64,000 nucleotides of DNA, from positions 576,001 through 640,000 of the forward strand of contig CAWHVC010000001.1 in NCBI GenBank assembly GCA_963832745.1, read 5' to 3'. This DNA is from Candidatus Bathyarchaeota archaeon (GTDB taxonomy: Archaea; Thermoproteota; Bathyarchaeia; Bathyarchaeales; Bathycorpusculaceae). This document shows, in pieces, positions 1,500 through 20,367 of this stretch; within the stretch, counting starts at the first letter, position 1, and the number at the start of each line of letters is the position of its first letter. The notes below the pieces were generated by a model. It did no database searches. It was not told where the DNA came from and worked only from the letters and a program-made list of their open reading frames with translations. The translations under genes were made by a program, and so were the position numbers.

Positions 1500-2165
1500 T
1501 CATGAATTGAAATATGCAATATTCTTTCTATATTTTTTCACGAAAATAGATTTTCTTGAACGATATTCACGCCAAATCGCTGCCGATGCGAAAAAAATTG
1601 TAACACCAAGAAGACTTAGGGCAATGGGCAAAAGTTTTATGCCTAAAGGAGTATAATAAAGCAATAAACCAAGTATAGAGGTTACGGCTATGCTCAATCC
1701 TAAACTCAATGCCACTCTTTCAATAATGTCCAAAGTAAGTGATTGCGTCTTTAATGGAACGTTGATAGGATACAAAAACTTAATTATTGCATAACCAGGC
1801 AAATAAGTAACGAAAGCAAGACCCAAAATATTACGCAAATAAACAACAAGTGTTGAACTTTCAGGACTTAGCATAATGATAAATATTAAAGAAACAGACA
1901 TCAGTACAAATAACCAATACCAAAGTGCCTTAGTCGAAAAAAGGAAACCATGACCTGATTCAGGAAAAACAGAATCATGAAATTCAAGCACCTTTTCATC
2001 CTCGAGCACCTGAAGTATATGCATAATTTGCTCCTCAGGCATGTTTAACTCTTTTTTTATTAAATTAACTAAAATTTCTGTTTTTTCAACATCTCTTTTC
2101 CTGATCGCTGAAATTATTATTTTTTTGACCTGATTGATTTCAGTTTCAGTTAAATTTTCAGTCAA
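1500..2165 (-). CDS. DUF1616-family membrane protein (N-terminal TM half) with a small soluble N-terminal domain
   Basis: LPGYAIIKFLYP...ERVALSLGLSIAV...LLLYYTPLGI pattern typical of the DUF1616 membrane region. Confidence 0.7.
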   Translation of the reverse strand: MTENLTETEINQVKKIIISAIRKRDVEKTEILVNLIKKELNMPEEQIMHILQVLEDEKVLEFHDSVFPESGHGFLFSTKALWYWLFVLMSVSLIFIIMLSPESSTLVVYLRNILGLAFVTYLPGYAIIKFLYPINVPLKTQSLTLDIIERVALSLGLSIAVTSILGLLLYYTPLGIKLLPIALSLLGVTIFFASAAIWREYRSRKSIFVKKYRKNIAYFNS

Positions 2166-2259
2166 ATATATATGCCTAAAATCACCTAAGACTTAATCAG
2201 ATTTAAGTTATTTCGTTTTACTGAACTATTTATATTATTAAAAAACGAGTATTTGTAAT

Positions 2260-4520: not shown

Positions 4521-4542
4521 TCACTTTTTATTTATTGAGTTA

Positions 4543-6090
4543 CTATGGATTTTTAAAAATAATTCTGGAATAACCATTATCATACAATAAACTCGTTGAA
4601 TTACCTGTGTTTATGTAATTGGAGTAATTAAAAGAATAACCGAGACCAGTCGTATAAAAAATAATATCATAATCAGTTATTTTTCCAGGGTCAGCATCAA
4701 AAAATCCTTTGCCTAAAAACCAAGTTTGGAGATAATCTTTAACTCTAAATTCTGCGAGAACTGAAATGTTTTTTACTAAAGTTGAATTATTACCAATATT
4801 TATGAAAAAATTTTCTGCAGAATATGTCTCTTTGGTTTGATAATAAATATTTTGACCATAGGACATGTGTATAGGAATGAAGACAAATAATAATAGAATT
4901 ATAAGTAATAAAGCCTGAAAATGTTTCTTAAATCTACTTTCTAAGAAAAAGAAAGCACTTAAAGAGAGAGACAAAAGTACTAAAGAAACAGCACGGATTC
5001 CTAACAGGTAAATAAAAGAGCCCAAGATTGAATAAAATACGCCTATTATGAAGACCGCTTTATCAGCAACTCTTAGCTTACGCCTCATAATAAGCATAAT
5101 AAAACCAATGAGACAAACAGCAACAGACAATATTGTAATTAAGCGCGAAATATTTTGAGCAAAAGTATCAATAGCAATTGACGTGGAGTTTATTGTACTT
5201 TCAAGATAAAAACTATAATCTGAACGATTAGTTAGCAAATATAGCAAGTTTGAGCCAAATTGAGAAGGCAGTTTTAAAAATTGTGTAAATAAATAAATTA
5301 TTGCGGTTGCCATAAACAGATACATGTTTCTCGCTTTTTTGCTAAGAATAAAAACACCAAACTGATACAGTATATAAAAAATGGCTACAAACGCATGAGT
5401 ATAAACTACACCAATGAAAAGTACTATCAGAAGCATTGTTTCAGTTAAGCTATGTTTTTCTCTTGTTTCAATCGTCAGAAGTAAAAGCACAAGAACAAAT
5501 GCGAGGGAGAATGGAACAGCTTGATAATTAAAGAAGTAAAAATCAACTATTATAAAAAGAAGCGTAGCATAAAAAGCATTTTCTTTATTTTTAGTTGCAA
5601 AAAAGATAAACACTGTGGTCGTAAGTAAGAATCCTATCATAGCATACAGAATGAAACCAAAGTATGTCAGGTTTAATTCGCTGAATAAAGTTGCAACAGC
5701 ACCAAATATGAAATATAGAGGCCAAGAATAATAGCTATGTAACCAAGAAGTCGAGGTCAAATCATTTGTTTTTATAAAATACTCACTTAACCCTCTAAAA
5801 TAAGGCGCATCTGAACCGGGAATCATGAAGTAAAAATATGATATTGAATAAATAAATAGAAAAATGCTTACAGCCATTAACCACTTTACAAAATAATTTT
5901 TTGATTGCATAGCTATCAAATAGGCCGAAACCAGTGCCATTGGCAAAGAAAACCAGTAAACAACAGACACATGATTAAAAATATAATCGTCAACACCATT
6001 GACAGATACTGGATAACTTATGTACCATGAATAGATCAGCAAGAAAATGCTAACAAAAAAAAATAGCCACAGAACATAACTTTTATTCAT
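4543..6090 (-). CDS. Polytopic membrane protein, GT-C/polysaccharide polymerase-like
   Basis: About 12 hydrophobic segments; GSDAPYF loop and YYSWP motif; position inside a glycosyltransferase cluster. Confidence 0.55.
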   Translation of the reverse strand: MNKSYVLWLFFFVSIFLLIYSWYISYPVSVNGVDDYIFNHVSVVYWFSLPMALVSAYLIAMQSKNYFVKWLMAVSIFLFIYSISYFYFMIPGSDAPYFRGLSEYFIKTNDLTSTSWLHSYYSWPLYFIFGAVATLFSELNLTYFGFILYAMIGFLLTTTVFIFFATKNKENAFYATLLFIIVDFYFFNYQAVPFSLAFVLVLLLLTIETREKHSLTETMLLIVLFIGVVYTHAFVAIFYILYQFGVFILSKKARNMYLFMATAIIYLFTQFLKLPSQFGSNLLYLLTNRSDYSFYLESTINSTSIAIDTFAQNISRLITILSVAVCLIGFIMLIMRRKLRVADKAVFIIGVFYSILGSFIYLLGIRAVSLVLLSLSLSAFFFLESRFKKHFQALLLIILLLFVFIPIHMSYGQNIYYQTKETYSAENFFINIGNNSTLVKNISVLAEFRVKDYLQTWFLGKGFFDADPGKITDYDIIFYTTGLGYSFNYSNYINTGNSTSLLYDNGYSRIIFKNP

Positions 6091-6282
6091 TTGCTGAACC
6101 TTTTTAGCGCTTATGAAAAGTTTAAAAGTTTATTAAAGATACACTTGCGTGTAGTAAGATCGACCTTAATTGTTCCACTCTGTATTTGTGTTGAACAAAT
6201 AAACTATCAAGTTTATTAATACACAATATATAAAGGAAAGCTGACTAAAAGGTAAAACTAAAGCAAGCCAGGATCTGAAAAA

Positions 6283-7485
6283 ATGCAAAGCACAAAAAGA
6301 TGCATAATATCGGTCATTCTAATAATCCTTATAGAAGCAAGTTTTGTTATGCCAGTCTTTTCTGCAAGCACCAGCAACCAAACACTTCGCACCACAGGCA
6401 TAATCATCTCGCCGATACTCAAAGTTAACGGTCAAATGATAGAAGATGCATTAGGAAATCAAGTAAAATTAAAAGGCATCCAAGTGGGCTGGAACGACCG
6501 CGTTAAAACACTTGGCACTACAGGCATGGCTGAATCTCCAGAAAATTCCTGGTTTACAACAGAAGATATTTCAAGAATTAAAGCCGCAGGGGGTAATGTA
6601 ATCGAACTCCATGAAAATGGGTTGGTTGACCTTATGCCTTCAAAAAATAGTCCAAACGAGGCGTATTTCTCCAATTGGCTCGATAAATGGGTTGCATGGT
6701 GTACACAAAACAAAGTTTACGCAATTATAGGAGTAAGAGGAATACATGCTGAAGAAGATTGGGCAATCCAACTAAGTTTGCCAAATTGGCTATGGCAAGG
6801 TATGTACGATAAACCTACGACCAAGGCGCAATACGATGCAATAATTAGAGATTTCTTTGATACCAGTGTTACAAAACAGGATTCAAACAGACAAGCTTTC
6901 ATAGATCTCTGGACATACATCGCAAACAGATACAAAGATAACCCGTATGTCATGTATGGCATTATCAACGAACCATTTAACTTTGTTGATGTACCTGCCG
7001 ATAATCAGGTTCATCTAAGCCAAACATATAGCACTCTTATGGAAAAAGTAGTTGATGGCATAAGAAGTACAGGAACTCAACAAATAGTTTTTATCGATGA
7101 CCCATTTTTGGGAGGAAACACACAACCAGTAAACAAAGAAAACATAGTGTGGGAAGTGCATGAATATATCGGTCCTTGGTGCCCAACATTAAATCAATGG
7201 AAAAGTTCAATTGATCAAGTCGTGCAGAAATTTGTTATTGGATTTGGCAAGCCTTTGTTCGTAGGAGAATATGGATTTGACCCAATATCTGAAGTGGAAA
7301 CAACTTATGCAAGTAACTGGCAATCACTTTTAAACAGTCAAGTTTCCTACATGGACAGCAAACAAATCAGCGGGAGACAATGGCACGCATGGGACTACAT
7401 CGAAGGAGAATATGCAGACTATACCCAAGACTCTACGTTTGATTTGCAGGAATCAAATTGGATAGTTCAAACGGTACTAGGATAA
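6283..7485 (+). CDS. Secreted glycoside hydrolase family 5 (cellulase-like)
   Basis: Signal peptide; LKVNG...DALGNQVKLKG; acid/base NEP; EVHEY; nucleophile VGEYG. Confidence 0.85.
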   Translation: MQSTKRCIISVILIILIEASFVMPVFSASTSNQTLRTTGIIISPILKVNGQMIEDALGNQVKLKGIQVGWNDRVKTLGTTGMAESPENSWFTTEDISRIKAAGGNVIELHENGLVDLMPSKNSPNEAYFSNWLDKWVAWCTQNKVYAIIGVRGIHAEEDWAIQLSLPNWLWQGMYDKPTTKAQYDAIIRDFFDTSVTKQDSNRQAFIDLWTYIANRYKDNPYVMYGIINEPFNFVDVPADNQVHLSQTYSTLMEKVVDGIRSTGTQQIVFIDDPFLGGNTQPVNKENIVWEVHEYIGPWCPTLNQWKSSIDQVVQKFVIGFGKPLFVGEYGFDPISEVETTYASNWQSLLNSQVSYMDSKQISGRQWHAWDYIEGEYADYTQDSTFDLQESNWIVQTVLG

Positions 7486-7487
7486 AT

Positions 7488-8681
7488 TCAAGTTCGATTT
7501 AAATATCTTAAATATTGGCGAATATAAACTTCAGGAGAAAAATTTTCTAAATATATTCGCTTCACAGTTTCTTTAGGATAATCGTTCTTAGAATAATTAT
7601 GAAACAAATCACGCAATTCATCAATATTTCGAAAAATTAAACGTTTATCTAATTTCCCAACTATTTCAGGTAATCCACCATAATCGGAAGAAATAACAGG
7701 GGTTCCAACTGAAAGTGCTTCAAGAACTATCAAGGGACTATTCTCAGCCCACATAGAAGGAACTATCAAAGCATTAGCTATTGAAAGTAATCGATATAGA
7801 ATATCAGAAGTAACCCAACCCAAAAGTACAACTTTTTTCTCAAGATGATTAGTTTTAACTATTTGACTTAGTTTTTCTTTTAAGCTTCCTTGCCCAATTA
7901 TTAATAGTTTAATATTAACATCCTTTTGTTTAACTAAATTAACAAGTTTAAGTAGCCCTTTATGCTCCTCTAGGACACCAGCATATAGATAAAAGTCTGA
8001 ATACTCAGCAACCACATCACTGATTGGCGGTTTTGAAGCAAAGTTAGGAATAACAACGTGATTAGAAAATGGCATTTTTTTATTAATTTGATCTCGTGTA
8101 TAAATACTGGGAGAAATTACTAAGTCAACATCTGTATTAACTACCTTTTGGAACGCCCCGCCGAGACGCCACAACTGAGGAGGACGCTTATCCCGAAGTT
8201 GGCAAAAAAAACAGGATCCCCCCAAACAAATTTTTGATTGAAAATTCAACAAACTACTTTTTGGACAAATTAACCAGTAATCGTGAGCGGTGTAAGCATT
8301 AAAGTAATCACCTTGTTTTTTTAATATTTTATAACCTAAAAGAGAAATATTATGATGATGAACAACATCCGGATTTACCTTTTTTATTAAATCGGCGAGT
8401 TTTAGATTTATGGTCTTAGATGATCCCGTAATATAAGAAAGATACGCACTTGAATTAAATTTAGTTTGGATCTCATAAGTATTTACAAGATCTTTTGTAT
8501 GAGTTTTTTTGTAACCGTATTTTTTTGTTTTTATTTCGTAAGCATCTAAGCTAGATAAAACATGAACATCATGACCAATCTTGGCTAATGCATCAGCCAA
8601 GTACTTAACATGAACAGCATCACCGCCTATGTGATAAGGAGGATAAAATGAGGCGGTGAAAAGAAATCTTAAAGTTTCCAT
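7488..8681 (-). CDS. GT4 glycosyltransferase
   Basis: YPPYHIGG, TAHDYWLICP, ENSPLIVLEALSVGTPVI. Confidence 0.9.
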   Translation of the reverse strand: METLRFLFTASFYPPYHIGGDAVHVKYLADALAKIGHDVHVLSSLDAYEIKTKKYGYKKTHTKDLVNTYEIQTKFNSSAYLSYITGSSKTINLKLADLIKKVNPDVVHHHNISLLGYKILKKQGDYFNAYTAHDYWLICPKSSLLNFQSKICLGGSCFFCQLRDKRPPQLWRLGGAFQKVVNTDVDLVISPSIYTRDQINKKMPFSNHVVIPNFASKPPISDVVAEYSDFYLYAGVLEEHKGLLKLVNLVKQKDVNIKLLIIGQGSLKEKLSQIVKTNHLEKKVVLLGWVTSDILYRLLSIANALIVPSMWAENSPLIVLEALSVGTPVISSDYGGLPEIVGKLDKRLIFRNIDELRDLFHNYSKNDYPKETVKRIYLENFSPEVYIRQYLRYLNRT

Positions 8682-8703
8682 TTTTTATTCTCTTTTTAGA
8701 ATT

Positions 8704-10140
8704 TTAATGTGCATGAACCATTCCATAAACCAAGTAATTTCTTAAAATTTTGAGAACATATTGTTTTGCCAAAGAAAAATCAGACGGATTTCTAGCTATA
8801 TACCAAACGTTTTGCAACCACCATTTAGGATTGAAATAAAGCGAACGATAAGCAAGCCTTCTAGCTTTATTTAAGTCATTGTAGTCTAATTCGGCAGTTC
8901 GCATAATTGATTCATGCTGGAACATATTCCAACCTATGCCTTCCTTGACCCAATTGTTCTCGATTGCTATTTTGTATAATTCAGTACCGGGATAAGGAAC
9001 CGCCACATTAATTTGTGCACCAGTTGGCAATGTCCTTTTTATGAAACCTATTGTTTCTTTTACTGTCGCCCAGTTTTCACCTGGCAACCCAAACATAAAA
9101 CTACAAAGCACCTTTATCCCCGCTTCTTTAGCCCATTTAATTGCATGTTCTGCTTGCCTGACTGTTACACCTTTTTGAGCATTATTAAGAATAAGTTGGC
9201 TACCTGATTCGATACCAAAAGAAATACCTCTACAACCACCATCGTAAAGAATACGCAGAAGCTCAGGGTCTACGAGGTTAACTCGTGTATTACAGTACCA
9301 AACAATACCCAAGTTCTCAGTCTTTATACTCTTCGAAATTAATATCGCTCTTTCTCGGTCAATTGTAAAAGTTTCATCGAAGAAGGAGACAACCTTCACG
9401 TTATGGACACTCTTCAGATAACGAAGCTCCTTCAGAATACTTTCAGCTGATCGCTTTTTTAGCGTTGTTCTTCTTTCAGTACAGTAAATGCAAGAATAAG
9501 GACAACCTTTACTTGAGTAAAGAATTGTGAAAGCGCCACCCTGTGGGATATTTACGAAGTATCCCTCTAAGTTTGGAAGCAAATCATAAGCGGGTAAAGG
9601 AAGAAAGTCCCAATTCAATTCCGGCACCGCTAATTCAGTAATTTTTGCAGCATCATTTTCACGATAAGCGATACCTGGAACAGTTGATAGAGACTCACCT
9701 TTAAAAAAGGCAGATATAACCAGAGGAACAACAACTTCACTTTCATGCAGAATATAGATATCCATGTCAGGAGCGGATTCTAACACTTTTAATGGAAGAG
9801 TTCTAAGTGTCCAACAGATTCCAATGGTTACCGCTCTCGGCAGTAATTTTTTTGAAATTTTGGCGGTTTTCATGTCCCATTCGAAAGTTGTAGGAGTAAA
9901 CCTAAAAACCAAAAAATCGAAGCTTAAACTAGATAATTTAGTTGTCAATTGAGACCAACTTAAATTTAGGAGATTAGCATCGATTAGTTGAACTTCATGC
10001 CCTGCTGCTTTTAATTGAGCAGCAACCTGTAGTAAACTATAAGGGGGGATAACTGCATCACGGTCTGTAATTTCGCATCGTTCTTCCCGTATAACAGGCA
10101 ATCCGTGGAATCTAGGGGGATTTATCAACAAAATGTTCAT
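8704..10140 (-). CDS. B12-binding domain radical SAM protein
   Basis: N-terminal LLINPP...PPYSL cobalamin-binding domain; SKGCPYSCIYC; FDETFT; GIESG; FMFGLPGE; PYPGT. Confidence 0.9.
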   Translation of the reverse strand: MNILLINPPRFHGLPVIREERCEITDRDAVIPPYSLLQVAAQLKAAGHEVQLIDANLLNLSWSQLTTKLSSLSFDFLVFRFTPTTFEWDMKTAKISKKLLPRAVTIGICWTLRTLPLKVLESAPDMDIYILHESEVVVPLVISAFFKGESLSTVPGIAYRENDAAKITELAVPELNWDFLPLPAYDLLPNLEGYFVNIPQGGAFTILYSSKGCPYSCIYCTERRTTLKKRSAESILKELRYLKSVHNVKVVSFFDETFTIDRERAILISKSIKTENLGIVWYCNTRVNLVDPELLRILYDGGCRGISFGIESGSQLILNNAQKGVTVRQAEHAIKWAKEAGIKVLCSFMFGLPGENWATVKETIGFIKRTLPTGAQINVAVPYPGTELYKIAIENNWVKEGIGWNMFQHESIMRTAELDYNDLNKARRLAYRSLYFNPKWWLQNVWYIARNPSDFSLAKQYVLKILRNYLVYGMVHAH

Positions 10141-11388
10141 TCAACAATCTCCTTGAATGTTTAAAGATATTATTTCCTCGTAAAGTTCAAGATATTTACT
10201 GAGATTAGAAGTCCATGAAAAATTTTTGGCAATAGTCTTGGTCGCATTTTGACTTAATTTTAATTGTAAATCTTTGTTTTCCAAAAGATTGATAATAGAA
10301 TCCGCGAGCATCTGGGATGATTTTTGATCAATTAAAATTCCATTATCACCATTTTGAATTATTTCAGGGATACCGCCAACTCTTGTTGCTACGACAGGCT
10401 TTCCACAAGCCATAGCCTCTAAAATTGTGTAAGGGCTATTTTCTGTAAAGCTTGGAGCAACAAGCAACTCTGATTTCTTAATCAGATGAATTATAGACTC
10501 TCTTGATAAAGGTCCTGTAAATAGTGCATAAGAAGATAAATTCATTGCTTTAATTTTCTTTAAATAACGCTCTTGATCACCTGGACCAGCAAAAACAAAC
10601 AATAAATTTTCCCGGCGCAGTTTTTGAATAACAGCTGGCATAGATTCAATTATGCAATCTACACCTTTCAATGCTAATAATCGTCCAACAAAAAGAATTA
10701 TGCGATAATCATTTAAAATAGATAGATCACTTTTTTCTGAAAAGTCATAATCAAAGGTATAATCGGCAAAGTCAACAGAGTTAGGTATAACGCGAATATT
10801 TGAATTTATTGAAAAATCTTTACGCATTAATTGCATCATCCATCTTGATGGAGATATCAAAAATCTATTATGTTTAAAATAGGCAGCCTCCGCTAACCTA
10901 AGAAAAGGATACATAATGCAAGTAGCTTGCTCAGACTTCTCCAGTTCACCAAATTGTCTATCAGAATACCTCGTGGCCAACCTTTGAGATTTTATTGTTG
11001 TATGCACTGTTGTCACAAAGGGTTTGCCCATTTTTCTGAACATCAAAAGAAGGTCCGGCATTTGAGCGGTATGAGAATGGATTAGTTCAATTTTTTCTTC
11101 TTTTACAAGTTTGGGAACATAAGTTAAACAAGCTCTTTGAAATTTAGCGTTATAAAAAAATGTATCATTAGCAGCAGATATGAAATGAACATGCACATTG
11201 CTTCCAAAATATTGAGAAAAGTTTACTTTATCAATTTTTTGTTTTCCAAAACTTGTTCGCTCTGGTGTCAAAACATGTACGTCTATATTTTTTGGCAAAT
11301 GTCTAACTAGCTCGATTATATATGTCCCTACACCGCCCCAAACTGGGAAAAACTCGGGAGCTAACATACAAATTTTCAATACATACAC
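10141..11388 (-). CDS. GT4 glycosyltransferase
   Basis: PVWGGVG, FVGRLLALKG, ENSPYTILEAMACGKPVV. Confidence 0.9.
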   Translation of the reverse strand: MYVLKICMLAPEFFPVWGGVGTYIIELVRHLPKNIDVHVLTPERTSFGKQKIDKVNFSQYFGSNVHVHFISAANDTFFYNAKFQRACLTYVPKLVKEEKIELIHSHTAQMPDLLLMFRKMGKPFVTTVHTTIKSQRLATRYSDRQFGELEKSEQATCIMYPFLRLAEAAYFKHNRFLISPSRWMMQLMRKDFSINSNIRVIPNSVDFADYTFDYDFSEKSDLSILNDYRIILFVGRLLALKGVDCIIESMPAVIQKLRRENLLFVFAGPGDQERYLKKIKAMNLSSYALFTGPLSRESIIHLIKKSELLVAPSFTENSPYTILEAMACGKPVVATRVGGIPEIIQNGDNGILIDQKSSQMLADSIINLLENKDLQLKLSQNATKTIAKNFSWTSNLSKYLELYEEIISLNIQGDC

Positions 11389-11458
11389 CCAAAATATTAA
11401 GAAATTAACCTAAACAACAGAATAATTTGGAATAGCCCTGTTTTGCCGTTCTACTAAC

Positions 11459-13873
11459 TCAAGGCTGTATCAACTTTACTGCAGAATTACCCCATAAGTC
11501 ATTTGCAGCTACACCAATTTTTTCTATTCCAGCGATTGGGGATGAAGTTACATGATAAACTTTTATTTCTTCTATTAGCGCACCATCATTGGCTGAGTTT
11601 GACAAAACAGTTAACCTAACGTATCTAACAGTTCGTTCACTAAATTGGTCTAAAACTATTCCGTGTTTTCCAGTATTAGAAACTATTTGGACCCAATTTG
11701 AACGGTCATTAGATACCTCGATTTTATAGTTGTAAAGTCTATTATCGCTACCATCATCACAAAAATAGGTTTGAATCTCACTTATAGAAACCGATGACCC
11801 CAAGTCTATTTCGACCCACTGAGGTAATTGAGTACTAGTACCCCAATAATTATTTTCTAGCTCTACCCCATCAACAATGAGTTCTGGTGCGTGCCCTAAC
11901 TCTTGAGATGATGCAGTAACACCCGAGGGGTTAGCGTTTACACTCACTTCAAGGATATGTGCATAAGAATTAGCCGAGTTATATGTGACGACAATTCTAA
12001 CATATTTTGCTTCGGTAGACTGATCAAGATAATCCCACACTACACCTCGACCATCTTTCTCATTTACCACTGTATTCCATGACAAATGATCATTTGAAAC
12101 TTGAATATAGTATCTGTATAAACGATTATCATAATCAAAAAAGTGAGTTCTAATATTGGTTATAGAAGATACAGAACCTAAGTCAAGTTCTAACCATGCA
12201 CCAGCCTGTACGGTACTAGGCGTACTATCCCAGAAACTCGAAAGGGTATCGTCACCATCAACAGTTCTTTGAGGTTCATATCCTTCTAAAAAGCCAGAAG
12301 CCGTGACACTTTCTACAGGCAGCCCCATTGTTGCTCGAGCAGCGACTGCCACATTTTCTCTCATAACTATTTGATTGGGAAGATCAAAAGTCCAAGAGTT
12401 AGTCCCAGTTTTTGAAGCTGTCACATGCAAGTAGTTCCCGTTAGCATACTTAAGTGCAACATATGGATGATCGCCCCACAAGGGTTCATTTGATGTAACC
12501 GTGTACGTATTAGCATTTTGGGTAATTGTCAAAGTAGGAGGGACATCATCACTAATTCCTACTGCTTTTTGAATAGCAGTTTTTGCAGTGACATACTGGA
12601 AAGAGACGCCATTAAAATCAGGGTTAGATTCGGCATTACGTAAATAAAGGTCAAGCCAGTTAACTAAAGTGTTTAAGTCATTTCTATCATGACTGTAGAG
12701 TGAAAAAACTGCGCTACCTGTTTCTTTAGCTTTTTGAAAAGCCGAATTAACATCTACCTGATTAAGCTCACCAAGGCTTGTTACTGCCCAAGAGCTAATA
12801 CCCTCAGGGTGAAATGGATACCAATCGCCACCTGGCGAAGTATATTCAAAAGGCATCCAATATGACTCCCAATCCAGCATACCAGGAGAATTCCATCCAG
12901 TTCGCCAGACTGATGGATAATAATTACTATCCAATATCATATGATCCAAAGCATCCATATGATATGTGTATGAACCATCCAAATCATTGTAGTACATTTT
13001 CCACATACCATCTTCAAAAACCATAAAATGATGATGATACTCGATAGCATCACCATACAACCCCAACTCGTTTCCCCAATAAGTATTAAGAATATCATAA
13101 ACAGCAGTATACCCTGAAACACCAACTTGAGTACCGTTTGCCCAGACAAAGTTACTTTTAGACATAAAATAATCCATTTCAGCAAACCATGTAACTTTAA
13201 ACGGGTTACCAAAACTATCTACATATGACTGCCGAAATGCATCATCGAATATTGCTGAAAGGGATGAATCGGTTTTATCGTATTCTCGCATATCTAACGT
13301 GGGATGGGGGTCTTTATTTTTCGGGTCATTTACATCCAAATATGGACTATGGTCTTCCCACATTTCAGTGTCAACCGCTATTACAACATAAACCGTTTTT
13401 TGATTCGAATTCTTAGAGAGACTTAGGGTGGCCTCAGTAAAAGTTCCATCATTTCCAGTAACTTTAATTTTCACGGGTTCATTCAAAGATAAGACAGAGT
13501 AATCGACTAGAATTGAAGCGGTCTGCCCTTCAGAAAGCCCAAAGGGTAACACTTGAGTATTACCGTTAATACTAAAAATTGTTTGGAGTTCATTCTTTAC
13601 GTAAACACTACTTGAACCTATTTCTATAAGACCTTGTCCAATGTTCTGCACATAAACTATTAGTTTGTTTGTACTTGGGTCAATGGCAGCGCTTTGTATT
13701 TGAAGAGCTTTACCGGTTCGAGTGGTTGTAAAGTTTAGGTACCCTCCAATCCAAGCGTAAGCTGCCAGAGCGGCGACTATTGTTATAGCTATCATCAGAA
13801 GAGCAGATATAACAGGCGAAAGCGCTCTAATATTACGTCTAAGTTTAGAAATTTTTTTCTTCAACATATACAT
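11459..13873 (-). CDS. Archaeal pilin-like protein (class III signal peptide) fused to a deacetylase-like domain and two F5/8 type C (discoidin/CBM32-like) domains
   Basis: RA|LSPVISALLMIAITIVAA cleavage motif; VDTE / EYHHH / WRTG motifs; two copies of DG...W...W(L/V)E(L/I)DLG...SND...W...(K/R)YVR. Confidence 0.75.
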   Translation of the reverse strand: MYMLKKKISKLRRNIRALSPVISALLMIAITIVAALAAYAWIGGYLNFTTTRTGKALQIQSAAIDPSTNKLIVYVQNIGQGLIEIGSSSVYVKNELQTIFSINGNTQVLPFGLSEGQTASILVDYSVLSLNEPVKIKVTGNDGTFTEATLSLSKNSNQKTVYVVIAVDTEMWEDHSPYLDVNDPKNKDPHPTLDMREYDKTDSSLSAIFDDAFRQSYVDSFGNPFKVTWFAEMDYFMSKSNFVWANGTQVGVSGYTAVYDILNTYWGNELGLYGDAIEYHHHFMVFEDGMWKMYYNDLDGSYTYHMDALDHMILDSNYYPSVWRTGWNSPGMLDWESYWMPFEYTSPGGDWYPFHPEGISSWAVTSLGELNQVDVNSAFQKAKETGSAVFSLYSHDRNDLNTLVNWLDLYLRNAESNPDFNGVSFQYVTAKTAIQKAVGISDDVPPTLTITQNANTYTVTSNEPLWGDHPYVALKYANGNYLHVTASKTGTNSWTFDLPNQIVMRENVAVAARATMGLPVESVTASGFLEGYEPQRTVDGDDTLSSFWDSTPSTVQAGAWLELDLGSVSSITNIRTHFFDYDNRLYRYYIQVSNDHLSWNTVVNEKDGRGVVWDYLDQSTEAKYVRIVVTYNSANSYAHILEVSVNANPSGVTASSQELGHAPELIVDGVELENNYWGTSTQLPQWVEIDLGSSVSISEIQTYFCDDGSDNRLYNYKIEVSNDRSNWVQIVSNTGKHGIVLDQFSERTVRYVRLTVLSNSANDGALIEEIKVYHVTSSPIAGIEKIGVAANDLWGNSAVKLIQP

Positions 13874-13912
13874 ACCTCTTTTTTAAAAATAAAATGCCCC
13901 GTTTGAGAAATC

Positions 13913-14624
13913 TTATTTTAAAGATTCATAAAAAATTCGTTTTAGAATTACAGCGCCATGTTTTAATCCAAGTTTTTTTTCGCCTATTCGGGAACGATAA
14001 GCGATTGGAACCTCAACAGTTTCATAAGCCGCTTCTTTTAACATAACTGTTCAGTTCAACTTCGATATCAAAATCTTTAGAAATAGGAGTCCAACCACGC
14101 ATTAATTCTGCTCTAATAACCCGTAAACCAGTCAAAGGGTCTTTCAAACTTACGCCGTTTAATATTGCATGAGCTGTAGCTATCAACTTGTTGCCGAGAT
14201 GAAAAACATCTTTCATCACTTCAAGCGGATAAATTGAATTAAATCTGTTTCCACATACCATGCCTATTTGAGGGTTTTCTTCCAAAATTCTTATCATTTG
14301 AGGTATATGTTGTGCAGGATATGTATAATCTGCATCGCTTATCACTACGTATGCGATGTTAGCATCCATACATTTTAGTCCGAAGCTTAAAGCGTCCCCT
14401 TTACCCATTCCTTCTTGGAAAACAACGTCGGCACCTAAGCTTTTGGCAACATGAACGGTGTTATCTCGGCTTTTTCCATCAACCACTAAGATTCTAGGGT
14501 TTCTTAAGTACTCTTTTAGCTCAGCAATAGTGTAAGCTATACCTTGTTCTTCATTTAACGCTGCAATGATAATTTGCATAGGCTGAAACGCAAAATAATT
14601 ATCCATTTTGTCCAAGCAACTCAC
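13913..14624 (-). CDS. GT2 (Dol-P-Man synthase-like) glycosyltransferase, broken by a 1-nt insertion near 14025
   Basis: ALNEE, VDGKSRD, GKG, DADYTY; the +1 frame continues YETVEVPIAYRSRIGEKKL to a stop at 13913. Confidence 0.85.
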
Positions 14625-14703
14625 CGCTCTTAAATTAACTCAATGATACCATGTATATAAAAACGCATAGAAGCAAATTCTATAGTACACAACAAGATTG
14701 CGC

Positions 14704-15306
14704 CTACTGTGTTACGTTTAGTGTCAAATACACTGACCGGTTATGAAACTGGGAAACGCCCAAGGTGGAATTGAACAGCCAAAGCTCGACAAATAGGCCA
14801 TAGTAATACCCTGTTCTGTTTGAGTTCCACATAGACGCTTCATTTACAGGGAAATCTAACCCATTAATACTGACACTTGAAATCTGTGACTTACCCTCAG
14901 AAAAATTAAAGTCATTAACTTTAAATGTAAGAGGTGTTTCCCAACTTTGCTCATCCTGAATAAACGTGTTAAATTCATACAATCCAAGCAAAGGACTAGG
15001 TGTTCCCAACTGAGTATTTGGGAGAGGTTCTGTTTCATTTCTAAACTTAACAATGCAAGTATAGTAACTTGACTGACCCATATGGTTACCAACACCTAAA
15101 TAAACCGAGTATTCTACGCCAACTTTCACGTTAAATGGAATATCATCAAACGTATGATTAGGCCCAAGCATGTAAAGCTCCGAAAACTGTTCACCTACTG
15201 GCGCCGTGATTATAAGAGCCAGCGTGGGCGAGGCAAAAATTAGAATGCCGATGAGAGTGACAGCGATAAAAACCATTCGGTAATTTTCAAGTTTCGTTGT
15301 AAACAA
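14704..15306 (-). CDS. DUF1616 C-terminal-like membrane-anchored extracellular domain
   Basis: TM helix followed by EQFSELYMLGP...VGNHMG pattern. Confidence 0.6.
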   Translation of the reverse strand: MFTTKLENYRMVFIAVTLIGILIFASPTLALIITAPVGEQFSELYMLGPNHTFDDIPFNVKVGVEYSVYLGVGNHMGQSSYYTCIVKFRNETEPLPNTQLGTPSPLLGLYEFNTFIQDEQSWETPLTFKVNDFNFSEGKSQISSVSINGLDFPVNEASMWNSNRTGYYYGLFVELWLFNSTLGVSQFHNRSVYLTLNVTQ

Positions 15307-15787
15307 CCTCAGGTTTCATCGATAATAACTTCTTTGTGTAGGAACCACTAAACCGTTGCCAAGCGATTATCATTATTAATATAAAAACGATAGAACAAAC
15401 TACCGAAAAAATAACCGTAAACCAAAAACTATTTCGACCCAACATAAGGCTAAAATCTTTCAGAGTAAGCGCTTCAGTGTTAACTTGATCAGCTATTTGC
15501 CGGGCATTATCAGCCTTTGACACCACACTGGACGGGTTTCCAGCTTGGTAAGCGTTTTGAGCATCTGCTAAAAGATCGCCTGCCCCATCTAACCTAGCCA
15601 ATAGTGCTGTCACGTTGCCACCGGCCTTTTCTGCAGCTAAAACATTGGTAAATGCAAGGTTAATAGAAGATGTTGCGCTTTGAATGCTTACCTCTTCATC
15701 AGCACCTTTTACCGCCACTATTTGGCAACTACCAGTTAAAATCACTATTAACATAGTGATTGTTACCAAGATAACTTGCTTTTTCAA
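15287..15787 (-). CDS. Hypothetical secreted helical protein with C-terminal TM anchor
   Basis: Signal peptide, Ala-rich helices (AEKAGGNVTALL), C-terminal TM; overlaps the next gene. Confidence 0.7.
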   Translation of the reverse strand: MKKQVILVTITMLIVILTGSCQIVAVKGADEEVSIQSATSSINLAFTNVLAAEKAGGNVTALLARLDGAGDLLADAQNAYQAGNPSSVVSKADNARQIADQVNTEALTLKDFSLMLGRNSFWFTVIFSVVCSIVFILIMIIAWQRFSGSYTKKLLSMKPEVVYNET

Positions 15788-15836
15788 AACGCCACCTCGA
15801 AGAAGACACGTTTTTGTTACGCTAAAACGTTTAATT

Positions 15837-16154
15837 TTAACTACCGCTTGAACAAAATTCTTCCAAAATTTTTCGTGAATTATTTAAATGAACTAACCTC
15901 TTCTTGACATTTTGATTATACTTACAGTACTGCTTGTAGACCTCAATAAAATCATGACCACGATCAGTAAGTTGATAACATTGCTGCTCAGGCAAATAAT
16001 AAATTAAAGATGCATTGATAACTTCAATAAGATATTTTTGTAACACACTATAACTCAGATTTGCTTGATACATTATCTGAGTTTTTTTGGCATTTTTGCT
16101 AGCTGCCTCCAAAATGTCGGCAATTATGGCAAGCCTATCACGATAAATACCCAA
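15837..16154 (-). CDS. Winged helix-turn-helix transcription regulator (HTH_45/ArnR1-like)
   Basis: YRDRLAIIADIL...KKTQIMYQANLSY...YQLTDRG; TTG at 16154 follows a GAGGG RBS-like motif. Confidence 0.8.
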   Translation of the reverse strand: MGIYRDRLAIIADILEAASKNAKKTQIMYQANLSYSVLQKYLIEVINASLIYYLPEQQCYQLTDRGHDFIEVYKQYCKYNQNVKKRLVHLNNSRKILEEFCSSGS

Positions 16155-16615
16155 GAAACAACCCTCATTAATCAAAACGGATTCGAAACAATATTTCAAC
16201 TTAAAGCAAAACAGAATCATAATAACCTTTAATCAATCCCTTCCTGACGGAAGCGGACAATGAAAGGCTAATTTACTCTAGCGAGTTATCAGTTGCTCTC
16301 CTTTTCCATCTCTAACCAAACTATTTAAGACAAACAGGACAAAGCATCTATTTAAATTGTCTAGAACAATACTCTATATTTTACATAACAATTTATCCAG
16401 TTAGCAAGTACACTACAAACAATAACAAGTTAGATCTTCACTCAAGCGCGTAGAACGTTAAAAAAAGATTTCCTTTTCAGCTCACACATTTTGGAGCAAA
16501 ATTGACAAAACCTAAGACACCATAAAAAAATACTTTCACAATAAAAAGCCAACAAATAATGCAATAAAAGGATCATTAAAAAATTCAAAAGCAACAAACA
16601 ATTACGAAACCAAGA

Positions 16616-17737
16616 TCAGGCTCCCACGGCCAACTGCACATTCTTTATAACCGTTGAAACTTCAAGATCATTTAACATGCAATGCATCGGCAACGTGATT
16701 GTGCGAGCTAATACTTCTTCAGCTACCGAAAGCGACAGACCAGTGGGATTTAGCTTTTTGTAGAAAGGTTGCATATGACAGGGAGGATAAAAAACGCTTC
16801 CTGTTTCAATACCATGAAGTTTCAACGTTTGAGTAAAAAGTTCTTTGTTGACTTTCTTAATCAGAATTAAAGGATACTTGTAGTAACTACATCTACTGCC
16901 TTTTGGACAGTTAACCACAGATAAACCACCCATTTTTCCAAATGCTTCATCATAATCTTTAGCGATTTTATTCCTAACTTCGACAAAATCTTCAACATTA
17001 TTTAATTGATGGATGCCAAGTACAGCTGAGATTTCAGGCATCAACATATGACGACCCAAGCTTTCAAAGTTTGTTTTTCCGGAACCTGAACCATAATAGC
17101 TGAATAATGAAGCATATTCAGCCAGTTTATTGTCGTTTGTTGCAAGCATACCACCTTCGCCTGTTGTAATCACTTTGGTTGGTGTGAAGGCAAAAACTGA
17201 TGCATCGCCGAAAGTTCCAACTTTTTTACCATCTATTGAAGCACCTAAAGCGTGTGTAGCATCTTCAATCAAAAAAAGACTATGCTCCTTGCAGACTTCC
17301 ATTATTTCTTTCAAATTTGGATTAGGAAAACCTGCAATATGTGTAACTATTACACCACACGTGTTGTTGGTTATTTTATGCTTCAGACTATTCAAGTCCA
17401 TAGAAAGCGTGTCTTTATCTATGTCTGTAAAAACTACTCGCCCCCCAGCGTAAAGAACACTGTTAGGAATTGAAATAAAACTATTAGTACAAACGATAAC
17501 TTCTTTACGCTCAATTTTATAATATTTTAAAACAGTCTCTAATGCACTTAAATCTGAATCCAAAGCGATTGCATGCTTTATACCTAAATAATCAGCGGCT
17601 TTTTGTTGAAACAAATTTAGGTTTTTGCCGTTTCTCAATTGACCACTTTCCAAAACAGATGCAATTTCCGTCAAAATTTTGTCAACATCAGATTTAGAGA
17701 AGTATGGCCTTGATGAACGAATAAAAGAGTCAACCAT
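16616..17737 (-). CDS. DegT/DnrJ/EryC1/StrS PLP-dependent sugar aminotransferase
   Basis: IEDATHALGA and FTPTKVITTGEGG (PLP lysine), TLPMH. Confidence 0.9.
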   Translation of the reverse strand: MVDSFIRSSRPYFSKSDVDKILTEIASVLESGQLRNGKNLNLFQQKAADYLGIKHAIALDSDLSALETVLKYYKIERKEVIVCTNSFISIPNSVLYAGGRVVFTDIDKDTLSMDLNSLKHKITNNTCGVIVTHIAGFPNPNLKEIMEVCKEHSLFLIEDATHALGASIDGKKVGTFGDASVFAFTPTKVITTGEGGMLATNDNKLAEYASLFSYYGSGSGKTNFESLGRHMLMPEISAVLGIHQLNNVEDFVEVRNKIAKDYDEAFGKMGGLSVVNCPKGSRCSYYKYPLILIKKVNKELFTQTLKLHGIETGSVFYPPCHMQPFYKKLNPTGLSLSVAEEVLARTITLPMHCMLNDLEVSTVIKNVQLAVGA

Positions 17738-17830
17738 AAAAAACGCCCAAAAAGAAACACGCTCAATCTTAGATGGATTGAACACTGAAATAGAAGTACG
17801 TCAAAGGGGATAATATTTCTTTCTTAACGC

Positions 17831-18217
17831 TTATTTGTGCAGCCAGCCGCGTCCACTTTTTTTAGGTTGCTGCTTAACCTTTCCTTGTTCACAATAACTT
17901 GCTGCACATTTAACGGTTCTTTTAGACTTTTGAGGGATAATACTAGTTTTTACGAATTTTCCCCAGCCACCCATTGTGGGACTTGGAGAAATATACCTTT
18001 CAGTATTTTCTACTTGATGTTTTTCCAAGATTTCTTTAAAGTTTAATGGCTTACAATCTCTTGTGGCATGAACAATCAAACCTCTATCAACGAAAAGGGC
18101 TGAATAATCTTTTACAGCCACGCCTTCAGCCCGAACCTTATCATCTAATCGTTCAAGCCAAAGCCGCTTCCATTCAACTTTAAGGTTATTTACAAGTTCT
18201 TTTTGATTAGACTCCAA
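17831..18217 (-). CDS. Hypothetical protein
   Basis: 128-aa ORF with protein-like composition; no family recognised. Confidence 0.6.
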   Translation of the reverse strand: MESNQKELVNNLKVEWKRLWLERLDDKVRAEGVAVKDYSALFVDRGLIVHATRDCKPLNFKEILEKHQVENTERYISPSPTMGGWGKFVKTSIIPQKSKRTVKCAASYCEQGKVKQQPKKSGRGWLHK

Positions 18218-18485
18218 CTGATATGCTTCCCCCTTTTTTCTGTTAAGGCATTACAGCCCATTTCGCCCTACTAATCTTGCAGTTATTTTAAGTACTCAAA
18301 ACAGCGCTCATATTTAAGCAATAATGAAGATTAAGGAATATTTTCTATAAAGACTAACACTCACCATTATTTGCTATGAGACTTAAGAGGCTGAACACTC
18401 AACCAATAAAAAGCAGCCGACAAAGCGATCGTTTTGTAACCTTTAAATTCTACTTTTACATATTCGGAAAGAGAGGAAACTTTTT

Positions 18486-19667
18486 ATGTCGACACAAAAT
18501 TTTGCAAAAGACATCTACATCAAATGCGTTAGAACAGTAAATGAAAATGACACATTGTCAAGGTGCCTCGAATTTTTTAAAAATGAAATGCCACCTGTAT
18601 TAGCGGTTTTAGATGCCAAAGGCAAATACGCCGGCGTAATTGCAAGAAGATGGATATTAAGATCAAGACTTGACCCAGCATCAACCAAAGTAAAAAGTTT
18701 AATGCGAGCCTCACCTAAAATCACCCCTGACGACGGAATTTCCAAAATTGCAAAACTCATGATTGAAAGTGGAGTAAGACAACTCCCTGTTTTTGAGAAT
18801 GAAAAGCTTGTTGGTTTTGTTACTGACGAAAATGTTATTCATGCCGCGGTTGGTCAAGAATGGGGCAAAGGCAAGGTCAGCAGCGTTATGACGCGTGCAC
18901 CATATACTATTGATGCTAATAGGTCAGTTGGTGCAGTGCTTAGCTTGTTTAGAGAGCACGGTTTCTCGCATGTTCCTGTTATGGATGACGGAAAAATCGT
19001 GGGAATTATTAGCATACAGGACATTTTAGAAAACGTTTTCCAGCCTAATGAACGCCAAACAACTGGAGACAGAGTAGGCGAAAAAGTCGAAACCTTCAGC
19101 GTACCAGCAAAAGGCATAATGAATAGCCCAGTAATCACCGTTGAATCCAATTTGAATCTTAGAGATGCAGAGAAAAAAATGCATGACTACAACGTTTCCT
19201 GCCTTGCAGCAGTCTCTAATGATAGACTGGTAGGAATTATTACTAAACTAGACTTTCTTGAACCAATCTCCCAGTTGGAAACGACACTGCCCCAATTAAC
19301 TATTCAATTCGGACTAAAAGATACAACAATATCCAGCGACCAGCAAGCATTCATGATGGATGAATTCGACTCATTTACCCGCAAATATCAAGAAGCATTC
19401 CGCATGGGAACCCTCTTTGTATACATTAAATCTCATGGATCAACAAACATGCGCGGAACACCGCTTGTACATTGCAGACTACAGTTTAGAACCATAAAAG
19501 GTACATTCTTTAGTTCTGGCGAAGGCTGGGGAGTAGAATCAACTTTCAGAACTGCATTAGACCGAATGGATCGACGCCTACTTAGAAGCAAAGAGTTACT
19601 AGCATACAACCCAAAATACGCCAAAGATTACATGCGCAAAATGGGTCTACCCGAAGAAGAACTTTAA
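18486..19667 (+). CDS. 4xCBS domain protein with C-terminal HPF/RaiA-like domain (Hib-like ribosome hibernation factor)
   Basis: Four CBS repeats (e.g. LPV..LVGFVT, VPV..IVGIIS); C-terminal LFVYIK...CRLQFRT...EGWGVESTFRTALDRMDRRL resembles the HPF fold. Confidence 0.75.
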   Translation: MSTQNFAKDIYIKCVRTVNENDTLSRCLEFFKNEMPPVLAVLDAKGKYAGVIARRWILRSRLDPASTKVKSLMRASPKITPDDGISKIAKLMIESGVRQLPVFENEKLVGFVTDENVIHAAVGQEWGKGKVSSVMTRAPYTIDANRSVGAVLSLFREHGFSHVPVMDDGKIVGIISIQDILENVFQPNERQTTGDRVGEKVETFSVPAKGIMNSPVITVESNLNLRDAEKKMHDYNVSCLAAVSNDRLVGIITKLDFLEPISQLETTLPQLTIQFGLKDTTISSDQQAFMMDEFDSFTRKYQEAFRMGTLFVYIKSHGSTNMRGTPLVHCRLQFRTIKGTFFSSGEGWGVESTFRTALDRMDRRLLRSKELLAYNPKYAKDYMRKMGLPEEEL

Positions 19668-19669
19668 CA

Positions 19670-19722
19670 AAAATTTCTTCTTTTTATTTTTATAAACATT
19701 TTTTTCTTCCTTTTTGATTTAT
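19670..19722 (+). terminator. Oligo-T archaeal terminator region
   Basis: Several T5-T7 runs directly after the stop codon of the CBS gene. Confidence 0.5.
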
Positions 19723-19857
19723 ACTTAAAATAATTCTAATGCAAACATCCATACGCTTTCTCGTTTGCCCTAGAAAATTTTAATAAAACCGCTAAAAACA
19801 TTTATAGCTAAAGTTGCGGAGAAGGAAAAAATAAAACTAAAAGAGATCCCAGCAATC

Positions 19858-20367
19858 TTGGTATTTGCAGGGATTATTTTAACTATAATCACTATGGGGC
19901 TCATTCAAAACGTAGGTTACGCCACTAACGAGTCGGTTACTCCATCACCAAATTCTCCTCAAAAAAATCTGGTAACTTCGGATTCAACAAATAATAACAA
20001 TTCAACAGGCAGTAGCAATCCAACCCCAACAAATAACATACCAACGTCTTTCCAACATAGCGACGGCATAAAAGTGTACGGTAAAGATAGCTCTATCGAG
20101 TTAGAAGGAATCGATTGGGGAAGAATCTTTATCGATATAACAAATTATTACTATATTTCAATTACAAATGTAGGCGACCAACCTGTTATCCTTGAATTGT
20201 CAGTGACAAATTGGACACCAGGCGTAAATGGAGTTGTTTACTGGAATTATAATGGCGCAACTATTCCTATCAACGGAACAGTGGCAATAACTTTATCGTT
20301 AATAATTAAAGATGCCACAACAGACACTTTCAGCAATGACATAACAATAACTTCAAAGAGCACCTAA
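19858..20367 (+). CDS. Secreted Ser/Thr/Asn-rich protein with beta-sandwich domain
   Basis: Hydrophobic N-terminus, low-complexity linker, IDWG...ITNVG...NWTP...WNY beta-rich domain. Confidence 0.6.
   Translation: MVFAGIILTIITMGLIQNVGYATNESVTPSPNSPQKNLVTSDSTNNNNSTGSSNPTPTNNIPTSFQHSDGIKVYGKDSSIELEGIDWGRIFIDITNYYYISITNVGDQPVILELSVTNWTPGVNGVVYWNYNGATIPINGTVAITLSLIIKDATTDTFSNDITITSKST

Follow-up and report, generated by a model that had tools for sequence, protein, structure and literature searches.

A bathyarchaeal modular type IV pilin with a deacetylase-type barrel and a nested pair of discoidin domains, encoded in a glycan gene cluster

In bacteria, type IV pilins in which a functional module is grafted onto a small and complete pilin module are known mostly as adhesins, for example, PilB (with a vWA module) and PilC (with a lectin module) of Streptococcus sanguinis. 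The text of a bacterial survey gives more than 1,200 modular pilins in 264 architectures, mostly with binding modules, and S74 and M26 peptidase modules are among those predicted (PMC8179133). For archaea, the main text of a 2026 survey gives 4,397 binding proteins with class III signal peptides, which, it was proposed, add functions to type IV filament machineries (PMC13705601). A further set of described systems comprises the secreted metal-dependent deacetylases of exopolysaccharide clusters, namely, Agd3 of Aspergillus fumigatus (family CE18), PelA, PgaB, and IcaB, with an attached carbohydrate-binding module. The present analysis concerns a 64,000-nucleotide stretch of the genome of Candidatus Bathyarchaeota archaeon (assembly GCA_963832745.1, contig CAWHVC010000001.1, positions 576,001 to 640,000; hereafter, the window), in which an open reading frame (ORF) encodes a protein with an archaeal type IV pilin module, a deacetylase-type barrel, and two F5/8 type C (discoidin) domains nested in a small β-sandwich. 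We give about even odds to the reading in which this modular pilin presents, as its cargo, a metal-dependent deacetylase or esterase from an undescribed family that acts on the polysaccharide of the surrounding gene cluster.

The layout of a small complete pilin module with a grafted functional module is shared with the bacterial modular pilins. The bacterial survey, as its text describes it, is limited to the bacterial IPR012902 motif, whereas the protein studied here is archaeal and has a Pilin_N/TIGR02537 N-terminus. A carbohydrate esterase is not among the modules named in the text of that survey (PMC8179133), whose Dataset S1 could bear on the point. The archaeal bindosome proteins likewise have a non-pilin cargo behind a class III signal peptide, but their cargo consists of binding domains of ATP-binding cassette (ABC) transporters and they share only the signal peptide and helix with the present protein, which has a whole pilin domain and an enzyme-like cargo. 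The terms deacetylase, hydrolase, enzym-, catalytic, and carbohydrate are absent from the main text of the archaeal survey (PMC13705601), and no archaeal fusion of pilin and deacetylase was described, by title or abstract, among the literature matches listed.

The sequence strings that had led to the original prediction of an enzyme-bearing pilin were all present in the translation of the ORF: VDTE at residues 167–170, EYHHH at 278–282, WRTG at 323–326, DDVPPTLTI...SNEPL at 442–463, and IGVAANDLWGN at 786–796. The features of the ORF are real and not coincidental motifs, with database E-values far below chance. Its layout, from the N-terminus to the C-terminus, is as follows (window coordinates):

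11459..13873, reverse strand: whole ORF, 804 amino acids plus stop codon, read from the translation
13823..13873, reverse strand: positively charged leader, residues 1–17 (MYMLKKKISKLRRNIRA), from the TIGR02537 match and the neighbouring pilins
13739..13822, reverse strand: hydrophobic N-terminal pilin helix, residues 18–45, from TIGR02537, 8fk7_A, and pilin comparison
13424..13738, reverse strand: globular β domain of the pilin module, residues 46–150, from 8fk7_A and the 154-residue pilin
12554..13402, reverse strand: enzyme-like module, residues ~158–440, from AlphaFold2, Foldseek, VIA-align, and 148 relatives
13364..13372, reverse strand: Asp168-Thr169-Glu170, closing barrel strand 1 on its C-terminal side; candidates for the base and the metal carboxylates
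13028..13036, reverse strand: His280-His281-His282, where a barrel strand ends; candidates for metal ligands (HxH)
12902..12904, reverse strand: Arg324, in a strand, motif F-R-[SA]-G-W
12689..12691, reverse strand: His395, with which a barrel strand ends; candidate for the catalytic acid
12338..12553, reverse strand: small β-sandwich, part 1, residues 441–512, seven predicted strands
11933..12319, reverse strand: F5/8 type C (CBM32-like) domain 1, residues ~519–647
11537..11920, reverse strand: F5/8 type C (CBM32-like) domain 2, residues ~652–779
11462..11536, reverse strand: last two strands of the β-sandwich, residues 780–804, after the lectin pair

The enzyme-like module showed no match in Pfam or NCBIfam, and a search of PDB sequences with the whole protein returned none for residues ~150–450. 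At E ≤ 10, the module matched 0 Pfam families; with 41 aligned relatives at the same threshold, no glycoside hydrolase (GH) or carbohydrate esterase (CE) family was found among the best 25 of the 76 families matched, and none of 35 distant representatives had a Pfam domain over the module. A word-indexed search retrieved 21 relatives, and HMMER, run over 1.84 billion representatives, retrieved 148 (clusters at 50% identity) with E ≤ 1e-3, including 41 with E ≤ 1e-30. The partners joined to the module in these relatives were F5/8C, Flg_new_2, PKD, CARDB, cohesin, dockerin, β-helix, Golvesin_C, and PEP-CTERM.

Modeling of the module with AlphaFold2 from a 41-sequence alignment gave strands alternating with helices at a mean predicted local distance difference test score (pLDDT) of 92.6 and a predicted template modeling score (pTM) of 0.91. 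The best Foldseek matches in the PDB were polysaccharide deacetylases with a probability of 1.00, namely, 3rxz (E 5.7e-5), HP0310 (3qbu), NDST1, insect chitin deacetylases, and ArnD. VIA-align was run on the Foldseek list and, independently of Foldseek, on 48,161 representative chains, with the same ranking. The highest score was that of HP0310 (HpPgdA, 3qbu; Z 15.0, 228 residues aligned, root-mean-square deviation 4.1, 11% identity), followed by 1z7a (Z 14.7), 3rxz (Z 14.5), 3s6o (Z 14.4), PuuE (Z 13.8), 3lm3 (Z 13.2), the NDST1 deacetylase (Z 12.9), and Agd3 (Z 12.3, 240 aligned). Lower scores were obtained for GH57 enzymes (Z ~11.9), YdjC/ChbG (Z ~11), canonical CE4 enzymes (2c1i, 2cc0, and 1w17; Z ~10), PelA (Z 9.8), and GH38 (Z 9–10). 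All of the best 50 chains in the wide search belonged to the superfamily of 7-stranded glycoside-hydrolase/deacetylase barrels, which answers the question of the fold in the affirmative, in agreement with the NodB/CE4-type β/α barrel that had been proposed for the middle domain. By comparison of the model, the HpPgdA/PuuE type of CE4 is the nearest branch. The best named look-alikes in the ESM Atlas were DUF3863, DUF2334, and polysaccharide deacetylase clusters, at 0.84–0.88 and thus all below 0.9, and are leads only. As a separate observation, a deacetylase-type barrel like that of the module is found in 8qpg (Z ~11), the turret protein of Haloferax tailed virus 1, so that display of this fold on a surface appendage extends to an archaeal virus.

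For conservation counts, 131 domain sequences, each 200 residues or longer, were aligned to the family hidden Markov model (HMM), and each position was scored in the relatives that have a residue there. The conserved positions were Asp275 (131/131), Arg214 and Asp219 (126/126 each), Trp229 (124/127), His395 (123/127), His280 and His282 (126/131 each), Asp168 (99/103), Arg324 (118/131), Glu170 (75/103), His355 (92/127), and an Asp at position 343 (103/131), which is Glu in the studied protein. Asp168, His280, His282, and Arg324, which had been picked out from the single sequence, are thus conserved positions of the family. The strand ends of a parallel barrel form one face. In the AlphaFold2 model, Asp168/Glu170, His280/His282, Arg324, and His395 are each placed within, or immediately behind, the final two residues of a barrel strand, and since all of them sit at strand ends, the Asp and His residues are predicted to cluster in space.

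The order of the CE4 motifs, as given in the text on Agd3, is Asp (MT1), His-His (MT2), Arg (MT3), MT4, and His (MT5) (PMC7229062). The order in the module, D(x)E ... HxH ... R ... (D) ... H, is that of MT1–MT5. The first motif, D168-x-E170 at the end of strand 1, is by residue offsets a candidate counterpart of the CE4 Asp-Asp pair (base and metal ligand). In HpPgdA, the zinc ion is described as bound through Asp14, His86, and His90, while Asp12 and His247 hold a water molecule (PMC3084791). The VIA-align alignment begins with model residue 9 at HpPgdA chain residue 2, so that Asp168 (model residue 19) would correspond to Asp12 and Glu170 (model residue 21) to Asp14 if strand 1 aligns without a gap. 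Variants of this first motif, D-x-E or D-x-D, exist in genuine PF01522 proteins and in HpPgdA; among the PF01522 proteins, D-x-E or D-T-E was observed in those that related archaea encode at loci L006, L012, and L014. Arg324 and His395 are located at modeled strand ends in the order expected of the MT3 Arg and MT5 His.

Comparison with HpPgdA and the PuuE branch showed a common non-canonical 7-stranded barrel of ~290 residues. As candidate counterparts of the HpPgdA site residues, the module has the D-x-E carboxylates where the corresponding strand ends, two His, and another His late in the sequence (model residue 246). The module differs from HpPgdA in its 11% identity, the absence of a PF01522 match, HxH in place of HxxxH, and ~40 more residues between motifs 1 and 2; further, it is extracellular, multidomain, and CBM32-flanked, whereas the HpPgdA tetramer is closed and has no groove for a polysaccharide. 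The likeness to Agd3, PelA, PgaB, and IcaB would be one of analogy, that of a secreted metal-dependent deacetylase of an exopolysaccharide cluster with an attached carbohydrate-binding module. As in Agd3, where the gap between CM1 and CM2 is reported to exceed 120 residues, over twice the CE4 distance (PMC7229062), motifs 1 and 2 are far apart (112 residues here), and kinship to CE4 is visible by structure only. No sequence similarity was detected, and Agd3, PelA, PgaB, and IcaB, unlike the present protein, have no pilin part. Agd3 also keeps the DD and HxxxH motifs, which are absent here, and its binding module is CBM87 instead of the CBM32 found here.

The two lectin domains were identified by Pfam PF00754 (F5/8 type C) in two stretches with E 1.8e-38 and 132 bits against a cut-off of 28.2, which places them in that family. 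CBM32 structures in the PDB matched residues 519–647 and 651–779, with hits at E 3.3e-8 and 1.5e-7, such as those of chitosanase/glucanase (2rva and 4zz5) and of alginate lyases (AlyQ, 7d29). The idea that this pair interrupts an Ig-like domain was evaluated by BLASTP of residues 436–804 against 24 relatives. In relatives devoid of F5/8C domains (e.g., P0005, P0006, P0008, P0012, P0027, and P0028), the segments matching residues 436–~505 and 775–801 adjoin, as in P0005, where they lie at 337–417 and 397–423. One F5/8C domain apparently lies between the sandwich segments in P0011 and P0016, as judged from the coordinates and lengths of the high-scoring segment pairs, and two are inserted in the studied protein, P0002, P0004, P0007, P0009, and P0024. 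In P0014, the sandwich is contiguous and the F5/8C domains follow it. The AlphaFold2 model of residues 436–804 (pLDDT 92.8, pTM 0.80) showed seven strands, two discoidin domains, and two final strands (783–792 and 797–802; pLDDT ~93). The contiguity of the sandwich in relatives, together with the strand order in the model, places the lectin pair before the last two strands of a small β-sandwich; the nesting thus stands. Foldseek with the same model returned only tandem discoidin/CBM32 structures and is hence silent on the nesting and on the label Ig-like. The protein therefore resembles other CBM32/F5/8C proteins in its PF00754 score, well above the cut-off, and in its matches to CBM32 and tandem discoidin structures, but differs in that the pair sits within another domain and not in series. 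With zero, one, or two CBM32 domains in the relatives, the β-sandwich provides a clear natural case of modular insertion.

The N-terminal part had been taken for a prepilin motif with a pilin globular domain, and this assignment was upheld by three kinds of evidence. First, the NCBIfam model TIGR02537 (archaellin/type IV pilin N-terminus) matched residues 16–45 with 38.2 bits against a cut-off of 20; the Pfam model Pilin_N (PF07790) scored 22.3 bits, slightly below its cut-off of 25.2. Second, residues 15–124 matched 8fk7_A, a solved archaeal pilin chain of 144 amino acids, in a search of PDB sequences (E 4.6e-7). Third, residues 1–149 shared 39.5% identity (E 5.6e-25) with the whole 154-residue pilin of a nearby locus and 41–42% with the heads of three larger pilin-headed proteins (417, 625, and 735 amino acids). 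The start, R-x-[KR]-A-[IL]-SPVIS...LLMIA...AYAW, is nearly identical in the four neighbouring pilins, whereas two pilins encoded elsewhere in the genome are far more distant (28–31% identity over ~80 residues). In view of this full-length identity, residues 1–150 represent a complete paralogue of the neighbouring pilus subunits and not a mere signal peptide.

The window belongs to a genome of 3.02 Mb (5 contigs), in which the class III N-terminal model had 8 matches, 7 of them above the cut-off, and 5 located 14–25 kb from the studied gene. The nearby pilus locus lies 12–25 kb away on the same strand as the modular pilin gene:

L002 (G000:C1:558001-576000), 3881-17112, reverse strand: type IV pilus locus with ATPase, platform, and pilins

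It contains a T2SSE-type ATPase gene, two T2SSF platform genes, and the genes for the 154-residue pilin and the three larger pilin-headed proteins. A gene for an A24 prepilin peptidase (PF01478; 44.1 bits against a cut-off of 26.5) was found at G000:C5:278644-278994. Leader and helix, a globular domain, and genes for peptidase, ATPase, and platform in the same genome together identify the protein as an archaeal type IV pilin, and a pilin module at residues 1–150 followed by barrel, sandwich, and CBM32 cargo identifies it as a modular one. The sequence predicts a cut by prepilin peptidase after Ala17, before LSPVIS, and uptake into a filament may follow. Of the large pilins of the locus, the one of 625 residues has three Big_3_5 domains and those of 417 and 735 residues have Flg_new_2; counting the studied protein, the genome thus encodes four modular pilins of one family.

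The fusion of pilin and barrel was found again among metagenomic relatives. The pilin module is fused in front in 4 of 159 family proteins, namely, P0002 (truncated at its N-terminus), P0004, P0007, and P0024; a regular expression had flagged P0004 and P0024 along with a false positive (P0013), and P0007 and P0002 were recognised by alignment. All four have the same layout of pilin, module, and sandwich with two F5/8C domains, and share 38–59% identity with the studied protein in the pilin part and 42–47% over residues 436–804; two of them carry the source name flagellin-like. As the whole architecture is shared by four relatives, the fusion is conserved and is not an assembly artefact. Among the 21 relatives of the first search, at least 5 have a hydrophobic C-terminal anchor; these are of the Sec type, and the pilin-type proteins end right after the sandwich. 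The pilin head therefore seems to replace the anchor for surface display.

The module is single-copy in its own genome. With this query, the module was not found in 40 related genomes (24 of the same genus) nor in 400 genomes from the phylum; the module gene is a sporadic accessory gene. A search of genome contigs with the single protein gave only three chance-like matches of 25–31 residues, in metagenome-assembled genomes of Alistipes. Scanning of metagenome contigs with a 10-sequence alignment yielded 20 loci. A pilin head was present in 0 of 19 target ORFs of these loci; the module begins at residue 28–72 behind a Sec-type N-terminus in 17 of the 19, and deep in giant proteins in 2. Neighbours were annotated in the 11 loci of at least 6 kb, leaving out L069, whose target is a giant protein of 4,178 amino acids, and 8 loci of less than 3.1 kb. 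In 9 of the 11, the module gene lies amid genes of the polysaccharide-synthesis type, such as glycosyltransferases of families 4 and 2 (GT4/GT2), Wzx-type flippase, UDP-sugar dehydrogenase, GNAT acetyltransferase, DUF2206, exosortase, polysaccharide lyase, and PGA_cap. The exceptions are L057, with transposase-like neighbours, and L068, with an ABC transporter and unrelated genes.

The gene in the window is likewise part of a co-directional run of glycan genes, with a GT2 gene just upstream and GT4, B12-binding radical SAM, and GT4 genes just downstream, and the set of B12-radical SAM, GT4, GT2, and GT4 genes is repeated in metagenome locus L061. Further genes of the cluster encode GT2, GT4, two DUF1616 proteins, a DegT aminotransferase, an HTH_45 regulator, and, in the opposite orientation, a GH5 enzyme. 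The guanine plus cytosine content of the glycan stretch (window 1–20000) is 31–38%, compared with 39–46% in most of the remaining window (20000–64000). The low content, along with the failure to find the module in the 24 genomes of the same genus, suggests a variable and possibly horizontally acquired surface-glycan island.

Some side observations were made in this region. The GT2 gene just upstream (window 13913–14639, reverse strand) looks frameshifted: the ORF at 14022–14624 stops after ...DFDIEVELNSYVKRSGL, and the other frame, at 13913–14050, goes on with ...YETVEVPIAYRSRIGEKKLGLKHGAVILKRIF..., a stretch that we take to be the usual C-terminus of GT2 enzymes of the Dpm1/GtrB type. The cause could be a sequencing error, or the gene may be a pseudogene or contain a recoding site. 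With the second frame included, the gap to the pilin gene is only ~40 bp. A second possible frameshift in the glycan region was seen in L002 at 478–2071 (reverse strand), where a Wzx/MurJ-type flippase looks split into two overlapping ORFs of 216 and 385 amino acids that match Polysacc_synt positions 6–152 and 132–273, respectively. Three ORFs of the cluster, all on the reverse strand, had no Pfam match (4543–6090, 15287–15787, and 17831–18217; 515, 166, and 128 amino acids); the one of 166 residues has a signal-like N-terminal segment and a hydrophobic C-terminal segment. At the start of the pilin gene, a GAGGT motif resembling a Shine–Dalgarno sequence (window 13867–13882) abuts the first ATG and lies 6 nucleotides before the ATG of the third codon. 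With the motif placed there, the true start codon may be that of Met3 (13867). A TATA-like A/T-rich stretch is located 10–50 nucleotides upstream. An Rfam scan of the window gave no match, and a promoter and terminator scan stayed at chance level with models that are of bacterial type and do not apply to archaea.

On these grounds, the following course of events is proposed. The A24 prepilin peptidase of the genome would cut the pre-protein after Ala17, and the pilin module would let the ATPase/TadC machinery of the pilus locus take up the protein as a minor, probably tip-exposed, subunit. The cargo of 650 residues would be a metal-dependent carbohydrate deacetylase or esterase of the CE4-type barrel superfamily, with Asp168/Glu170, His280, His282, Arg324, and His395 as the candidate site, and the barrel would be held beside the two CBM32 lectin domains inserted in the β-sandwich spacer. 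Its substrate would most likely be the polysaccharide made by the surrounding glycosyltransferase cluster, by analogy to PelA, PgaB, IcaB, and Agd3.

Several observations weigh against this proposal. The His pair is H280-x-H282 and not the HxxxH of CE4/CE18, as family members have Met, Tyr, Phe, Pro, or Val at the i+4 position (284), and the position of Glu170 is occupied by Ser or Ala in 23 of 103 relatives. The original prediction that the motifs are spaced like NodB/CE4 motifs 1–3 held for motifs 2 to 3 and failed for motifs 1 to 2, as the gap of 112 residues is about twice the CE4 spacing, nearer to that of Agd3/CE18, and speaks against membership in CE4. The gradient of structural scores is shallow (deacetylases Z 15, GH57 ~12; a margin of ~3). 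No carbohydrate-esterase sequence model matched the module even at E ≤ 10, which leaves it outside PF01522, and the family profile searched against PDB sequences gave CBM32-type matches only. A family alignment of 132 rows was also compared by hhalign with 18 PF01522 proteins and with 29 DUF3473-type CE4 proteins from related genomes. The global mode gave a meaningless alignment, and the local mode gave alignments collinear, motif for motif, with both CE4 sets at E ~0.1. The score of 18.6 compares with 10–23 in column-shuffled controls, 2 of 10 shuffles reaching at least 18.4; with the second CE4 set, it was 18.3 against 7–12. As the scores were no better than those of some shuffled controls, the hhalign result was not counted as evidence of homology to CE4. 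With regard to function, HpPgdA is described as inactive in vitro on the usual polysaccharide substrates (PMC3084791), and a cargo of 650 residues may not fit in the filament body. Finally, a canonical PF01522 gene lies directly upstream of the module gene in L063 (3006–4013), L064 (3931–4938), and L067 (8453–9460) and ~8 kb upstream in L062 (1132–1986); such a neighbour in 4 of 11 loci could mean a different activity of the module or cooperation between the two. In view of the HxH pair, the 112-residue gap, and profile scores at control level, the module is considered a new family of the barrel superfamily and not a member of CE4, and probably one that works like a CE4/CE18 deacetylase.

The pilin module could instead serve as a membrane anchor or a short pseudopilus stalk, in the manner of the Sulfolobus bindosome proteins, so that the enzyme would sit at the cell surface and would not belong to a long pilus. 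We regard this as rather unlikely. It accords with the thousands of archaeal proteins with class III signal peptides that the survey predicts, in its main text, to be binding proteins and not filament subunits (PMC13705601). Most relatives of the module are of the Sec type, some with the C-terminal anchor that the pilin head would replace, and the gene lies in the glycan cluster, outside the pilus operon. A simple anchor, though, would not account for a complete pilin globular domain that is 39–42% identical over residues 1–149 to the adjacent subunits, including the module-only pilin of 154 residues.

With regard to catalysis, the barrel could belong to a glycoside hydrolase, a lyase-type enzyme, or another hydrolase of the superfamily (GH57, GH38, or YdjC-like) that trims or cleaves the polysaccharide. 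In Pel and poly-N-acetylglucosamine (PNAG) systems, a hydrolase accompanies the deacetylase, and the canonical CE4 genes that adjoin the module gene in three loci and lie nearby in a fourth would fit such an arrangement, as would the invariant Asp219 and Asp275, to which no role is assigned, and the matches of GH57 and GH38 barrels at Z 9–12. The module had no Pfam match to these families. This is nevertheless improbable: the best structural matches are all deacetylases, by 2–3 Z units; the His-rich set (H280, H282, H395, and H355) with a single conserved Arg fits a metal-dependent amidohydrolase better than a Glu/Asp pair; and the cluster already has a GH5 gene.

The favoured reading, a deacetylase or esterase acting on the polysaccharide of its own cluster, also has to be weighed against a role in scavenging, in which the enzyme would act on foreign polymers such as chitin, acetylated xylan, or the matrix of other cells. 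Dockerin or cohesin modules occur in some distant relatives, the CBM32 domains resemble most closely those of chitosanase/glucanase and alginate lyase, and a GH5 gene is nearby; yet the module gene lies in polysaccharide-synthesis clusters in 9 of 11 loci and not beside sugar transporters or catabolic genes, and the likelihood of scavenging is accordingly put as small. That the module is a glycan-binding pseudoenzyme, and the protein a pilus adhesin with three carbohydrate-binding units, is very improbable, as the studied protein keeps all the conserved polar residues (90–100% of 131) save for Asp to Glu at 343, in an active-site-like pattern, even though CE4 pseudoenzymes exist (BA3943; entries 7bkf and 6hpa are among the structural matches) and the domains of the three large pilins in the pilus locus are all of the repeat or adhesin type.

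If the favoured reading is true, a pilin enzyme would extend the role of type IV filaments from sticking and pulling to chemistry at a distance, and it would open a way to learn how archaea mature their exopolysaccharides, about which little is known. The module of ~290 residues is a compact and conserved family located in polysaccharide-synthesis clusters, and hence a good candidate for a new carbohydrate-esterase family. It is possible, if somewhat less than probable, that the protein is the first type IV pilin with an active carbohydrate esterase or deacetylase cargo and the founder of a new esterase family (D-x-E...H-x-H...R...H on a CE4-type barrel), in which case the pilus would be a catalytic appendage that, some way off from the cell surface, edits the exopolysaccharide of its own cell or of a neighbour.

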